DNA from: Vermamoeba vermiformis
Taxonomy: Eukaryota
Length of the DNA: 64,000 nt
Assembly (NCBI GenBank): GCA_045837725.1
Contig: JBEWZL010000145.1
Location: forward strand, 186,001-250,000
Direction of reading: 5' to 3'
Made by a program: the position numbers and the translations under genes. This document shows, piece by piece, positions 52,484-58,916 of the stretch (its first letter is position 1; each line of letters opens with the position of its first letter). A model generated the notes under the pieces. That model had not been told where the DNA came from. It was given only the letters and a program-made list of their open reading frames with translations, and searched no databases.

Positions 52484-54630
52484 ATGCCCGTTATTACTGT
52501 AGCTAAAACAGAGTTGTTCCGTGTGCTCGGTGAAGAGTTCAGTAAGTTCAGACTCGATCCATTGCAGACGCTACTACTAGTTGTTGACTAACTGCTCTCA
52601 GCTGACGATGAATTCAGTGACCTGTGCTTCAAGTTCGGTATTGAGCTCGATGATATTGTGAGTAGTGTATTATATTATTGATTGTTGGCTCACTTCCATT
52701 TAGCACGCCGAGGATGGATCAAAAGATATTACTAACGTACCTGCTCACAAAATTATGTATAAAATTGAGATACCAGCTAATAGGTACTACATAATTAGCC
52801 AAGACATAATTTTATTATTGAAAACAAGAAATTAAACCGTTCAACAGATACGATCTGCTCTGCCTTGAGGGTCTATCAAGAGCGCTTAGAATATTCCGTG
52901 GCAGAGAAAGCTTGCCCAACTATCGCGTGTCTCAACCAGCGCAGATGCAGCGCATGGTCATCAAAGAGTCCGTGACTGCTATTCGCGGTGTGGTGGTCTG
53001 TGCCGTGCTGCGCAACATGCACTTCACGCAAGCAGCGTACGACAGCTTCATTGACCTGCAAGAGAAGTTGCACGAGAACATCTGTCGCAAGCGCACATTG
53101 GTCAGCATTGGCACGCACGATCTCGACACGATCCAAGGCCCCTTCAGCTACGAGGCCCTGCCCCCGCAAGACATTGTGTTTGCACCGCTGAACAAGACGA
53201 CGGCTGTGACTGGCGCGCAGCTGATGATTGATCTCGCGGCTGACAATCACCTCAAGAAGTACTTGCACATCATTCAACACCTGCCCACCTACCCCGTCAT
53301 ATTCGATGCGCAGCGCCGCGTGCTCTCCTTGCCCCCGATCATCAACGGCAATCACTCCAAGATCACGCTCAACACGCGCAATGTGCTGATTGAGATCACC
53401 GCCACGGACCTCACCAAGGCCCTCACCGTGCTCGACACGATGGTCGCCATGTTCGCGCAGTACTGTGCCGTGCCCTTCGAAGTCGAGCCCGTGGAGATTG
53501 TGCACGAGAAGAGCAATCAAGTGCACGTCTATCCGCAGTGGGGTCAGTGGCCGACTGTCACCGCTGATGCTGCAAAGATCTGCAAACAAGTCGGCATTGA
53601 ACAGCAGCCCGTCGCCGATCTGATCGCCATGCTGCGTCGCATGAGTCTGCCAGCACGTGCCAGTGCCACGTCAGCCACTGAACTCGTGGTCGATGTGCCA
53701 CCCACGCGCAGCGATGTGATTGCCGCGTGCGATGTGATGGAGGACGTGGCGATTGGCTACGGCTTTGAACGCTTGATTGCGCGCAAGACCATCCCGCACA
53801 CCTTGACGAGTGGTCGCCAACAGCCGCTCAACAAGCTCACCGATCAGCTGCGTCACGTGCTCGCTTGCGCTAGCTACGATGAGGTCTTGACATTCGGATT
53901 GGTAAGTGTTGCGGCGTGACATTCGTGACGTTCTAAAAATAGCTCATTGCCCCGTGCAGGTCTCGCGCAAAGAGAACTTCACTTCACTGAACAAGCCAGA
54001 CGACAACTCTGCAGCAGTGATCGCCAATCCCAAGACGCAAGACTTCCAAATCGCACGCACCACGCTGCTGCCTGGTCTGCTCAAGACACTGCAGAGCAAC
54101 AAGAGCTTGCCGCTGCCACTGCGCGTGTTCGAGATCTCCGACGTCGTGCTCAAGGACAGCACGGTGGACGTCGGTGCTGCCAACAAGCGCATGTTGTGCG
54201 CTGTCTACGCCGACACCAGCTCTGGATTCGAGGTGAGTAATTCCGCTCAGTGCTTGACACTTGCTGACACGTGGCACAGAACATTCACGGTCTGTTGGAC
54301 ACGATCATGACTGCCCTCGAAGTGCCTTGGAAACACCGCGATGACAGCAAGAAGAGCCGCGTCAAGACACACGAGGCACATCAAGGTCCCGCACTCAGCT
54401 ACGAAGTGTTGCCTTCTGAAGGTGAGTACTGCACTTAACTACTGACTGGAGCTGTACTAACAACGACATTAGACACCACTTATTTCCCTGGAAAGAGAGG
54501 AGATGTGTATTTGAATGACAAGAAGATCGGTGTCTTTGGTATCTTGCACCCTGAGGTCTTGAAGCACTTTGGTCTTACTGCCCCGTGCTCTGCCCTGCAA
54601 ATTGAGATTGAACACTTTGTTGATTACTAA
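52484..54630 (+). CDS. FARSB: Phenylalanyl-tRNA synthetase beta subunit
   Basis: [77 protein letters not shown]. Confidence 0.97.
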
Positions 54631-54701
54631 ATAAACATTTGGCATTGTCCATCCAGTTTTGGAGCATATCCGTTGATGGTGGTAGCTAGAAAGTTACTAA
54701 G

Positions 54702-55227
54702 TTAGAAAGTTGCACACGAGTAGAGATACCAGAGGAACCTCATTCTATCAAGATCCAATGCAAAGCTTACACCCACTTCAACCAGTTTGCTATCTGCCAG
54801 TAATAGGTGTCTTAAAGCCTTGTATGGCCTGGAATCCGAAAGTAAGTGGACAACTCTTTTGCTCAACATATGAACTGAATGGTCACTGTAGTGTCCACCA
54901 CAGGGAGGCTGTACTGCACATGTGAGCAGCGTGCCCATCCGCAGTTAGAGGGTCCAATTGTGGTTTGAGAGTTTGCCAGTTTGGAAGCAGAGAGTCAGAG
55001 AAGCATCGTCAGATTCATTTCAGGCCCTGCTACTTTGATTCTGAATCCCTTCTTCCTAGAAGTTGCCAACCTCTGCCTTTAGCACCAGCGGACCCAAGGT
55101 ACAATGTTGCATTGGACGCTTTAGGCTAAGTCTGCTGGAGGCTGAAAATGGCATTGTTCTGCAGAACTTAAGTACTAGAACATTGTTCTATATGCTTCAA
55201 TACCATTTAAACTTTGGAAATACCTAG
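54702..55227 (+). pseudogene. Decayed paralog of orphan ORF 56481-57020
   Basis: Colinear blocks LESC, SFYQDP, QPLPLAPADPR, ENGIVLQNLSTRTLFYM; needs two frameshifts and has an in-frame TGA at 54923. Confidence 0.6.
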
Positions 55228-55256
55228 AACTATCACTATGTAACAAGAAAATATAA

Positions 55257-56064
55257 GGAGGTCGGCTTGCATACTGTGAGCTGGACGTCCACCATGGGCA
55301 GGGCGTCCGCTGACCTTAGGTTTTCTCTGACAGTTGCAGCAATTGCTTAGATTATTGTATTATTGATATGTTTCTGCTATATCCAGTGCATCTGATGGTC
55401 TTGGACAATTTCTAAAGGAGCTGGAAAAATTACACTCATCAACAGAACTAATCTTCTGCATACCTCACTTGGCTCCAAATGTTTACAGTTTCAATAGCTA
55501 TTGTAAGCAGCTTGCAAATCTATGCGTGCACTCAAATCAAAGCTGATACAAAAAAGTTGACATGCACACCCTTTCAGCAACATAAAATTTGTAGAGAATT
55601 GAAAATACACCAAGTTCTATACAGAACTATTGATGCATCAATGAGGTTGGTCTGTATAAGTCTTTTTTTTTGCAACCAACTTCAATGGGAGTTCTTCATA
55701 TGTAAGCAACAAAATAGCCAGAAAATTCATAATCAATCTTTATATGGGTGGTTAAGCTCTGTGCTAGTACTTAAATGGGGTTTGCTGAAATCACCAATGT
55801 ATGGCAACTTCATCCCCTCCTAATCTCTGTTCTACAGCACTCCTCAGCAGCCAGAAAGCAAAGTCCACCCATATTATATTCATGTTCTACATGCTGAAAC
55901 AAGGTGCATTTGAATTGGTCAATTACTAAGGTCGGTGGACGCCCCGTCCACGGTGGACACCCTGTCCATGGACGGACACCCTGACCATGGGCGGACGCCC
56001 CGACCACGGACGGACACCCTGACCATGGACGGACACCTTGCTCACCATGTGCAGGACGACCTCC
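55257..56064. mobile_element. Non-autonomous TIR element (PIF/Harbinger-like or foldback-like), TAA flanks
   Basis: Left arm 55257-55319 matches reverse complement of 55926-56064 (GGAGGTCG..TGCA..GTGAGC..GTCC..GACCTTAG); TAA at 55254-56 and 56065-67. Confidence 0.65.
55937..56040 (+). repeat. Tandem 18-19 bp repeat, about 5.5 units, consensus GGACRCCCYGWCCAYGGAC
   Basis: Units start at 55937, 55955, 55974, 55993, 56012, 56031. Confidence 0.95.
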
Positions 56065-56356
56065 TAAGTAATCACAAAGATATTATTGTGACAGCAATTT
56101 GTAAATTAGTAGCATTAAGTATGAACCCATCCATCAGCACATACTTTGTACAACATCACTACACGTATTTTATGCACCACTGAACTTTAGCTACAATTCA
56201 TTGTCACCTAACTGTCCAAAAATTTTTGTATCGTTCATACTTTTTTATGTTGTAACTTTGTCCAGCATGGTGGCAAATCTGTTTATATGGGAATATGCTT
56301 AACCACATACATGGCATATAGAAATCTTGTTAAAATCTTCTTACTTTATGATGTAT

Positions 56357-56420
56357 GGTCGGCGGACACGCAGTCCGTGGCGGACGTCCAATTTTTGCCG
56401 GACAGGACGTCTGCCGTGGC
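56357..56420 (+). repeat. Third, partial copy of the GGTCGG/GGAC repeat family
   Basis: GGTCGGCGGACACGCAGTCCGTGGCGGACGTCC aligns with reverse complement of 55283-55315. Confidence 0.85.
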
Positions 56421-56480
56421 AAACAGTTTTAAAATTGTTGGATATGCTTAATCATATCAGAAAAAAACGACACTATGGCA

Positions 56481-57020
56481 TCAGCTCAGAAAGAACAAAG
56501 TTTGGTGCGAGAGTTCTTTGCAGAACATGCCATTTTCGTATGCAACTCTTTGCGCCTCCGTGCCACTAGTAGTACTTCTTGAGTCCAGTGGTGCTAACGG
56601 CAAAGTTTGGATAAGTTGGCTTACCAACCTCAGTGGCCAGCAACCATGGATTGATGCATTGTCCACACAGATGAGACGTCCACCCCTTAACTTTGGTGCA
56701 GCACTATGGGATGGCATAACTCGCCAGAGGATGGACATCCTCTCAGGGGCTAGCTGAGCATAAGCAATTATGAACCTATTGAAGGTTGGCCAATCCAGTG
56801 TAGAGGACGTAGCCAGCCAGGGTGAGATGTACAGCCTGGCTAAGTTATCTGGCCCAGACAGTTGTATGTCCTGGACAAGTAAAAACTTCCATATGTAGGG
56901 TTTGCAAACCTTTTTGTGTTCGGTAACCATGGTGTGATGAAATTCCCGTCCAAGGAGGCTGGGTCTCTCATAAAAACTCAGATCATGTCCCAGTTCAGAG
57001 ACACAACTTTCAATTCCCAA
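56481..57020 (-). CDS. Orphan ORF of unknown function (start not defined)
   Basis: 179-codon open frame; frame supported by residues shared with paralog at 54702-55227 through different codons (Leu CTC/TTA, Ser TCG/AGT, Thr ACT/ACA). Confidence 0.45.
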   Translation of the reverse strand: MGIESCVSELGHDLSFYERPSLLGREFHHTMVTEHKKVCKPYIWKFLLVQDIQLSGPDNLARLYISPWLATSSTLDWPTFNRFIIAYAQLAPERMSILWRVMPSHSAAPKLRGGRLICVDNASIHGCWPLRLVSQLIQTLPLAPLDSRSTTSGTEAQRVAYENGMFCKELSHQTLFFLS

Positions 57021-57458
57021 AAAAACCGAGGTTCTACTCAGAACATAGATTCATTCTTTTCTGCATGTCACTGTTCTCAAGCCCAGATCATATAATAACA
57101 AATACGAGATTTCTTTGTCTGTTACTAAAGCTGGACACCCCATCCAACCAGCCTCTAGCCTCTGGGCTACTCAAATTCAGGATACATACCATGAACCACT
57201 GGACATCTTTGAAGAGTTACATTTGGGCCTATTCCTCCAAGCACCTGTTTTAAGCAGGAAATCCATTTTAGAATTGCAACTTGGGCAGGTGTCCACGTGA
57301 AATGCTTGTAGACTTTGTACTGTTCATTTTTTTTTGGTGCCTGCCAAAATAACCAGTCCCTAAGGTCGGCCAAGCGAAGGCTAACATTTTTATCTCTGAC
57401 TTTCGTTTTTAATGTTCTCTATGCATAAAATCGTTTATTATGAAGAGGATGGAAGAAA

Positions 57459-58916
57459 TTATTTCTTGGGGTTGTAGCTGTTGGCGAGTTCAGTGCCGCG
57501 AATGAATGTGGGCTCGACATACACATCGTGGTACAATTCTTCAGGCGCGGGTTCAGGGCTTTCACGCGCGAATTTGACGGCCTCATCGACCTCAGCCTTG
57601 AGCTCGTCGCTGATCTTCTTCAACTCCTCGTCGGTGGCGAGCTTGTTGTCCAACAAGTACTGTTGCACCTTCAAGATTGGATCGTGCATGTCGCGCATCT
57701 GTTGCACTTCTTCGCGCGTGCGGTAAGTGGTGCCCGGATCGGACATGGAGTGGCCTTGGAAGCGATAGGTCTTGGCCTCCAAGAAGATCGGGCCCTTGGT
57801 CAGCGCGTGTTCCTTGGCGTACTTGCCGACCTCGCGCGAGACGAGCACGTCCATGCCATCGAACTGCAGGCCTGGCAAGTAGTCACCGCGCGTGTAGAAC
57901 TCTTTGGTGGCACTGGCACGCTCAATGCTGCAAGGGGTGTGAGTATGGACTGTACAGCGCGGCCACATCCGTTACCTGGTACCCATGGCGTAGAGGTTGT
58001 TCTCGACCACGTAGATGACAGGCAGCTTCCAGAGCTGTGCCATGTTGAAGGACTCGTAGACCTGGCCCTGATTGGCGGCACCATCGCCAAAATAGGCAAC
58101 TGTCACTGTGCCAGTCTTGTTGTACTTCTGCGCGAAGGCAATGCCCGTGCCGAGCGGTACTTGTGCGCCGACAATGCCGTTGCCGCCGTAGAAGTTAGTA
58201 GCGCGCTTGTACATGTGCATCGAGCCACCCTTGCCCTTGCTGCAGCCAGTGGATCTGCCCGCGAGTTCAGCGAGCACTTCTTTGGCTGTACCACCGCAGC
58301 GACGCGTGACTAAGAAGCCGTGATCACGATAGGCAGTGATGACGTGATCTTGCGGGGTGAGCGCTGATTCGAGACCACTCGCGACTGCTTCCTAGGAGCA
58401 CATTCAGAACACGAGTTAGCAAATCTGCGAGGAGTGCACTGTGCGAGTGCTGCACATCACCTACCTGACCGTTGTACAAGTGCAAGAAGCCACGAATCAA
58501 TCGGTCCTTGCCAGTGTACAGTGTGTTCGCTGCAACTTCCATTTTGCGGATTAAACTCATCTCGCGATAGTAACCCAAGAGCTCTTCACGCGTGGTGTAA
58601 GTGAACATGGGGGGTGCATCGACGTTGTGTGTTTTATATTGTGACTACACGCAGCATTAGCTCCTTGTTTGTTGGCCATAGAAAATATTTTCACTATTAT
58701 TTGATAATATTGTCAATTATTATTATATTAATTACCTTGAATTCAATCTTCACTGAACCTGCAGGCTGATCAGTCTTCTTAGCTGCATAGCTACGAGTGA
58801 ATATTTGGACCTGCTAATAATAGAGTCAACAAAAGGCTTTGGATCAGCTGCTCCATCTGACTCACGTCCTTGCGCGCAAGTTTCTTGAAAGTCTGCTTGA
58901 CAACTGCCCCCAACAT
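57459..58916 (-). CDS. PDHA1: Pyruvate dehydrogenase E1 alpha
   Basis: [43 protein letters not shown]. Confidence 0.98.

Follow-up and report, generated by a model that had tools for sequence, protein, structure and literature searches.

A probable nest of ordinary MITE-like transposon remnants in an intergenic spacer of the protist Vermamoeba vermiformis

The window analyzed here, a stretch of 64,000 nt of Vermamoeba vermiformis (assembly GCA_045837725.1, contig JBEWZL010000145.1, positions 186,001 to 250,000 of the forward strand), is eukaryotic and gene-dense, with short GT..AG introns, and its housekeeping genes include those for TOR kinase, EF-2, actin and gamma-tubulin complex proteins. 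Between the end of the phenylalanyl-tRNA synthetase beta (PheRS-beta) gene at 54630 on the plus strand and the end of the pyruvate dehydrogenase E1 alpha (PDH-E1-alpha) gene at 57459 on the minus strand lies a spacer of 2.8 kb, which harbours two partly similar segments, termed A (plus strand) and B (minus strand). A preliminary description of this DNA had taken the open reading frame of B (ORF-B), together with A as its decayed copy, for two paralogous genes defining a possible new protein family. The spacer is, instead, quite probably a small pile of non-autonomous DNA-transposon remains, in which the apparent A/B paralogy comes down to one pair of fragments and two copies of a terminal repeat.

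Extent and level of the A/B resemblance

ORF-B is indeed open at 56481-57020 on the minus strand, over 179 codons from a TTG, and the 33-nt nucleotide match quoted in the preliminary description is present (55066-55098 against 56578-56610, 82% complementary). The resemblance was assessed by local nucleotide alignment of A with the reverse complement of B, with 500 dinucleotide shuffles for comparison. The best alignment pairs 55066-55190 with 56610-56492 at a score of 52, which none of the 500 shuffles reaches (mean 20.9, maximum 36), and nhmmer aligns the A block with the B block at E 4.2e-6. The motif GGACGTCC..GACC, which was said to follow each copy, does so over 37 nt (55282-55318 against 56354-56390, 78%), with a score of 34 compared to a shuffle mean of 12.9 and with none of 500 shuffles reaching it. 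Only the ~125-nt stretch and this 37-nt motif are above chance. The upstream halves (54690-55060 against 57040-56616) score 18 where the shuffles average 19.2 and 399 of 500 reach that value, the DNA separating block 2 from the motif does no better than chance either (454 of 500), and the best protein Smith-Waterman score of ORF-B with the three frames of A, 45, is not significant in view of shuffled ORF-B (mean 33.1, sd 5.0, maximum 57). The shuffled-sequence test that had been proposed for the A/B alignment is, therefore, passed by the ~125-nt stretch and the motif and failed by the upstream halves and at the protein level.

The same division runs through the four colinear protein blocks that had been listed, where IESC/LESC and SFYERP/SFYQDP are chance likenesses (399 of 500 shuffles) and the later ~125-nt stretch is real as DNA. 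That half of these blocks are at chance level, and that tBLASTn with ORF-B in the 64-kb window finds only the ENG.. block at E = 0.70, would fit a whole A/B resemblance due to pure chance. This explanation is, however, refuted by the shuffles of the ~125-nt block and of the motif and by the nhmmer value, and virtually no weight is left to it.

What is shared by A and B is a similarity of nucleotides. The ~125-nt alignment is interrupted by indels of 2, 1, 1, 1, 5, 2, 1, 1, 2 and 1 nt, and block 2 (ENGIVLQNLSTRTLFYM / ENGMFCKELSHQTLFFL), in which 28 of 51 positions are identical when it is kept in frame, becomes identical in 41 of 53 columns once gaps of 1, 2 and 1 nt are allowed. Blocks 1 and 2 of A are in different reading frames, and the seven differences in block 1 fall 4/1/2 on codon positions 1/2/3, without an excess at the third. 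These observations point to a likeness at the nucleotide rather than the protein level, one that does not have the look of purifying selection on a protein, and the proposal that A and B were under protein-level selection before decay is not borne out, given the frame-breaking indels and the lack of a third-position excess in block 1. Nor is A a decayed copy of the whole of ORF-B, because only the ~125 nt and the terminal motif are common to both; A itself is interrupted by stops and breaks up into three short ORFs that differ in frame.

Further copies of the A/B sequences were sought in the 64-kb window by blastn, tblastn and nhmmer and none was found outside the spacer, while a 25-nt IUPAC pattern that fits block 1 in A as well as in B had no match in metagenome contigs and none in viral contigs. 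A 20-nt word from the part with the highest sequencing depth did occur at nine metagenome loci; all nine match only the 20-25 nt word itself, and these were dropped as chance. A new protein family would be expected to have two or more members whose proteins resemble each other significantly along most of the sequence, and either further members or a coding signature such as codon bias or a synonymous excess. What was found is a pair of sequences with ~125 nt and a 37-nt terminal-repeat motif in common, with no relatives and no such signature, and the two supposed paralogs do not amount to a family of genes.

Terminal inverted repeats, copy number and empty sites

The nature of the shared pieces was revealed by contigs from a DNA run of the same organism (run X2, Logan contigs) and from a water-metagenome run (X4), both mapped on 54000-58000 at a likeness of at least 88%. 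In this interval 585 X2 contigs map, and their summed depth (Table 1) shows a pile-up of 55- to 150-fold over 55072-55339 and 56010-56411; such summed contig depth does not equal copy number, and tens of similar copies can be read from it only roughly. At ~56412 the depth falls from 40,320 to 812, and a unique contig begins at 56382. The pieces shared within the spacer are thus high-copy interspersed repeats with terminal inverted repeats (TIRs), so that the part of the preliminary description that invoked a mobile family holds and the part that made A and B its cargo or accessory gene is not supported.

Several contigs skip a defined part of the spacer. Seven listed joints in X2 link 55163-55254 to 56076-56204, additional ones lead from 55245 to 56075, from 55247 to 56090 and from 55257 to 56075 (the last of these also in X4), and at least 10 contigs connect ~55254 straight to ~56076. 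Since these contigs join sequence to the left of 55257 to sequence to the right of 56064, other copies of the surrounding repeat exist without 55257-56064, and the empty-site joints therefore identify 55257-56064 as an insertion. This inner element has three features of a miniature inverted-repeat transposable element (MITE), namely TIRs at both ends, a target-site duplication (TSD) together with an empty site elsewhere, and no capacity to code for a transposase. Its TIRs of ~65 nt start with GGAGGTCG and are accompanied by subterminal 19-nt repeats rich in GGAC, its ends pair with each other when the strand is folded as DNA (z -8.35), and its AT-rich interior of 600 nt contains a single ORF, of 114 aa, for which no Pfam family was found at E <= 0.1. 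Relative to the flanks, depth is 6-9x over the interior of the element and 57-90x over its terminal repeats, again as summed depth and not as a count of copies.

The TIRs also explain the motif that follows A and B. A profile built from all four TIR copies finds those same four, two in plus and two in minus orientation as in a nested pair, and gives no further hit in the 64 kb at E < 0.01. The pattern GTCCRCYGACC occurs exactly three times in the window, every time within the spacer, and what had been described as a hairpin-like motif is therefore the terminal inverted repeat of a MITE-like family. The two occurrences are not equivalent appendages of A and B, as the motif after A is the left TIR of the nested element and the motif after B is the right end of an outer repeat. 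The inner end of the TIR, CTAAGGTCGG, has three matches in the window compared to 0.13 expected, every one in the spacer. The third exact match is at 57360-57369, 90 nt from the stop of PDH-E1-alpha; a TIR relic suspected for this reason at 57355-57458 would consist of only a 10-12-nt match (reached by 2-3 of 500 shuffles) with no hit to the TIR profile, although it may stem from another element. Searches of 54600-57500 with Rfam (E <= 1) and ARAGORN returned nothing, and the spacer therefore contains no tRNA-derived head of a short interspersed nuclear element (SINE) and no known RNA.

The outer repeat spans at least 55066-56415 and perhaps extends from 54904, where a candidate left end is found. 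With the inner right TIR as a single query, nhmmer matches 54905-54978 at E 7.5e-4, and the reciprocal search gives E 4e-4. The right end at 56415 matches both the fall in depth (~56411) and the position at which the unique contig begins (56382). The B block lies 77 nt outside this end and supplies the last ~40 codons of ORF-B, and with a depth of 642-812 it is too diverged to gather the contigs of the family at 88% likeness.

The position of the B block bears on another explanation, in which 55066-56610 is one foldback-like or long-TIR element of ~1.55 kb with 55066-55190 and 56492-56610 as its arms, enclosing the nested MITE as well as a TIR-like motif. The two blocks are mutually inverted and they do bracket the high-copy region, as this would require. 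However, the depth falls at ~56412, 80 nt short of the right arm, which is near single copy; the arms are only ~80% alike, yet many genomic contigs match the left arm at 88% or better; and the point at which the depth falls is precisely the end of a proper TIR copy. Only four X2 contigs fit two places of the stretch, and they neither support nor exclude a foldback. A single foldback element is accordingly considered unlikely, and a nest of two elements with an old fragment beside it is preferred.

Table 1. Features of the spacer and its neighbours, and summed contig depth in run X2 (positions in the window).
Feature	Position	Strand	Evidence or value
PheRS-beta gene, 3' exons (left neighbour)	53906..54630	+	Pfam B3_4, B5 and tRNA_synthFbeta on upstream exon; relatives; RNA reads, spliced joints
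Candidate left end of outer element, a degenerate TIR copy with its outer end first	54904..54974	+	nhmmer, TIR profile; no TSD seen
TIR copy, profile hit	54905-54974	+	E 9.9e-11
A block, internal segment of high-copy non-coding repeat	55066..55190	+	shuffles, nhmmer, X2 depth
TAA TSD, left copy	55254..55256	.	read from sequence; joints 55254/55257 to 56075/56076
Nested MITE-like element, 808 bp	55257..56064	+	TIR alignment, TIR profile (E 4.9e-16, 9.6e-11, 6.3e-9), tandem repeat, fold, empty-site joints
Left TIR of inner element	55257-55324
TIR copy, profile hit	55257-55324	+	E 4.9e-16
Right TIR of inner element	55921-56064		lengthened by ~5.6 tandem 19-nt units (55933-56037)
TIR copy, two profile hits	56063-55921	-	E 6.3e-9 and 9.6e-11
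TAA TSD, right copy	56065..56067	.	read from sequence
Outer high-copy repeat, 3' part, ending in TIR copy 56347-56415 (outer end 56415)	56068..56415	+	depth, TIR profile
TIR copy, profile hit	56414-56347	-	E 8.8e-14
ORF-B, most likely not a gene	56481..57020	-	179 codons from TTG (189 stop to stop)
B block, inverted fragment of A-block repeat, ~80% alike	56492..56610	-	alignment, nhmmer
PDH-E1-alpha gene, last exon (right neighbour)	57459..57968	-	Pfam E1_dh E 4.2e-39; RNA reads
Summed depth, both flanking genes	and up to 54803		~361-372
Summed depth	55072-55339		20,425-21,255 (20,425 in bin 55072-55205)
Summed depth	55340-55875		2,098-3,199
Summed depth	55876-56009		6,636
Summed depth	56010-56411		33,591-55,507
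Summed depth, B block	56412-56679		812 and 642
Summed depth	56680-56947		1,881-3,515
Summed depth	56948-57215		312

ORF-B, the neighbouring genes and the host

Whether ORF-B is nevertheless a real gene, either an orphan or one borne by a transposon, with A as its decayed paralog in a new protein family, was judged from its own properties. In its favour, only 0.2% of spacer shuffles contain a stop-free run of 189 codons, and the codon log-odds of its frame, -0.36, are better than those of frames 1 and 2 (-0.75 and -0.67), which contain stops. By the same measure real exons score +0.23 to +0.49 and their wrong frames -0.4 to -0.96, and the codon usage of ORF-B is non-genic. The GC content of ORF-B is flat over the three codon positions (0.49/0.45/0.49), where nine real exons (eight long ones and that of PDH) have a third-position GC of 0.65-0.76, and there is no ATG before codon 31, from which a protein of 149 aa would result. 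No homolog was obtained in any protein search, with no hits among 5.8 billion proteins (word-indexed search), none at E <= 0.001 among 1.84 billion representatives (full HMMER) and no Pfam family at E <= 1, the last also for the stop-to-stop form. Recognition in the ESM-Atlas is low, at 1593, whereas 91 of 100 real families attain 2300, and the single-sequence AlphaFold2 pLDDT of 39.5 is in itself weak evidence. The nearest ESM-Atlas clusters, MTR4-stalk/HelY SH3 at 0.90, share 146 of 256 features, fewer than the 170 typical of true hits, and were put down to chance. Together with a likeness to A that is confined to the last ~125 nt and broken by indels, these properties make the gene very unlikely; a small probability is kept for a real or transposon-derived gene because the frame is longer than expected.

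Expression could be examined only through two runs of raw RNA reads that carry the species label of the source DNA and come from a strain diverged from the window. These cover both flanking genes, at a depth of ~16-93 per direction, and place no read within 54670-57483 (0 of 907 and 0 of 1041), which counts only weakly against a gene in view of the divergence. A likeness to the window of at least 99% is seen in only 7 of 907 and 0 of 1041 reads, nearly all of the others being 88-99% alike, that is, differing by 1-12%, and the differences look like fixed, mostly synonymous sites, at least 39 of which are listed in 54010-54528. The species label seems to cover strains or cryptic species ~5-12% apart. 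As the spacer of the diverged strain would not map at 88%, these reads neither show nor exclude expression of ORF-B.

ORF-B is most likely a chance open frame over single-copy spacer DNA that ends in an old fragment. A variant in which it is a young, lineage-restricted gene, born de novo from spacer DNA and the old transposon fragment and with a transposon-derived C-terminus, would explain a frame longer than 99.8% of shuffles reach and is regarded as highly improbable. Inside ORF-B, the depth over 56680-56947 is 5-10x that of single-copy DNA, and opposite-strand joints lead from 56845/56851 to TIR-bearing sequence (55990, 56393). The middle of ORF-B may hold a low-copy repeat fragment, which alignments in the window do not support: a TIR relic suspected on these grounds at 56780-56880 is matched by 98-312 of 500 shuffles and has no TIR profile hit.

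The two neighbours are housekeeping genes. The short introns of PheRS-beta at 54233-54280 and 54422-54476 are confirmed by spliced RNA reads, with a joint from 54421 to 54477 and with loose ends at 54232 that continue with post-intron sequence; at the second splice junction the RNA strain has four other letters. With no more than 52-59% identity, the closest named relatives of the PheRS-beta exon are scattered over many eukaryotic groups; two unnamed entries reach 94% and 88%. Because the named relatives are so distant, the host would appear, as judged by PheRS-beta, to be a poorly sampled protist. At 54821-54988 and 57312-57483 there are two alternative contigs each in X2, with depths of 281 and 162 and of 302 and 130, which differ by few substitutions and small indels, and this suggests two haplotypes, as in a heterozygous diploid or a mixed culture. 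The water-metagenome run X4 contains contigs identical or nearly identical to 54256-54630, 55060-56065 and 57042-57196, including single-copy and repeat parts, which places the source organism or a very near relative in water samples of this type.

Interpretation and comparison with known systems

The evidence is best accommodated by a nest in which an 808-bp MITE-like element would have inserted into a second high-copy, non-coding repeat that ends in the same kind of TIR, with 56492-56610 as a presumably older, inverted fragment of that outer repeat, beyond its right end. Such elements would move by cut-and-paste, relying on a transposase encoded elsewhere in the genome and acting in trans, an enzyme that would bind the terminal and subterminal repeats and that, given the 3-bp TAA duplication, we infer to be of the PIF/Harbinger (Tourist-like) type.

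Several points weigh against this interpretation. Scans of sequence collections gave nothing related, and the boundaries, the consensus and the superfamily depend on one locus together with tables of depth and joints. The TAA duplication comes from a single insertion, and a length of 3 bp is shared by the duplications of CACTA elements. For the outer element no TSD could be recognised (CAG compared to GTG at the ends), and its left ~160 nt (54904-55060) are not high-copy and are near single copy. The RNA evidence is uninformative, as the only runs are from a strain ~5-12% different in exons, and the 0.2% figure for the frame of ORF-B, from 2000 mononucleotide shuffles of the spacer, is unusual for a chance frame. 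Finally, in both copies the block is followed by the terminal repeat, outer end first, at a similar distance (~67 nt in A and ~76 nt in B). This spacing is treated as a coincidence; a milder alternative is that terminal repeats landing ~70 nt downstream of the same segment in both copies would hint at self-targeted nesting.

With these points taken into account, the locus is best regarded as an unremarkable pile of MITE-like transposon remnants in the spacer of a protist, one that gives no sign of a new protein family. The importance of this result is mainly for annotation, in that a false orphan gene family is removed and an undescribed MITE-like repeat family is flagged by its GGAGGTCG terminus, its 19-nt GGAC-rich subterminal units and its TAA duplication. 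The family would be useful for repeat-masking the host genome, and the presence or absence of the insertion could serve as a strain marker.

Each part of the nest has counterparts in known systems. ORF-B has the properties of the chance ORFs or 'orphan genes' that are called over repeat DNA, with a long frame, no homologs, non-genic codons and overlap with a transposon fragment. The inner element shares long terminal repeats made of short tandem units and a strong hairpin potential (z -8.35) with foldback elements and long-TIR MITEs; in contrast to both, its repeats occupy only about a quarter of its length and the 600-nt middle is unique and AT-rich. Elements of the CACTA/EnSpm group make a 3-bp TSD and have subterminal repeat arrays that are the binding sites of their transposase, and non-autonomous members share both features with the inner element, whose ends, however, read GGAGGTCG rather than CACTA or CACTG.

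The closest likeness, one of anatomy, is to the Tourist-like MITEs of the PIF/Harbinger superfamily, such as mPing of rice. The inner element is, at 808 bp, about twice the size of mPing, its TIRs are long (~65-140 nt), and its subterminal units of 19 nt are tandem and rich in GGAC. An autonomous partner, which would have matching TIRs, a DDE transposase and a second, Myb/MADF-like ORF, did not show up in an ORF scan of the 64-kb window, in which none of the 52 ORFs scanned, of 81 with at least 130 codons, has a transposase domain. PIF/Harbinger elements are described as making a 3-bp target duplication (PMC2213677) and that of mPing as usually being TAA (PMC2836001), a pattern that the TAA duplication of the inner element, as read at one insertion, fits. 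Like the Tourist-like MITEs, the elements of this spacer are short and non-coding, have TIRs and a 3-bp TAA TSD, probably occur in many copies, lie near genes and are nested in one another.

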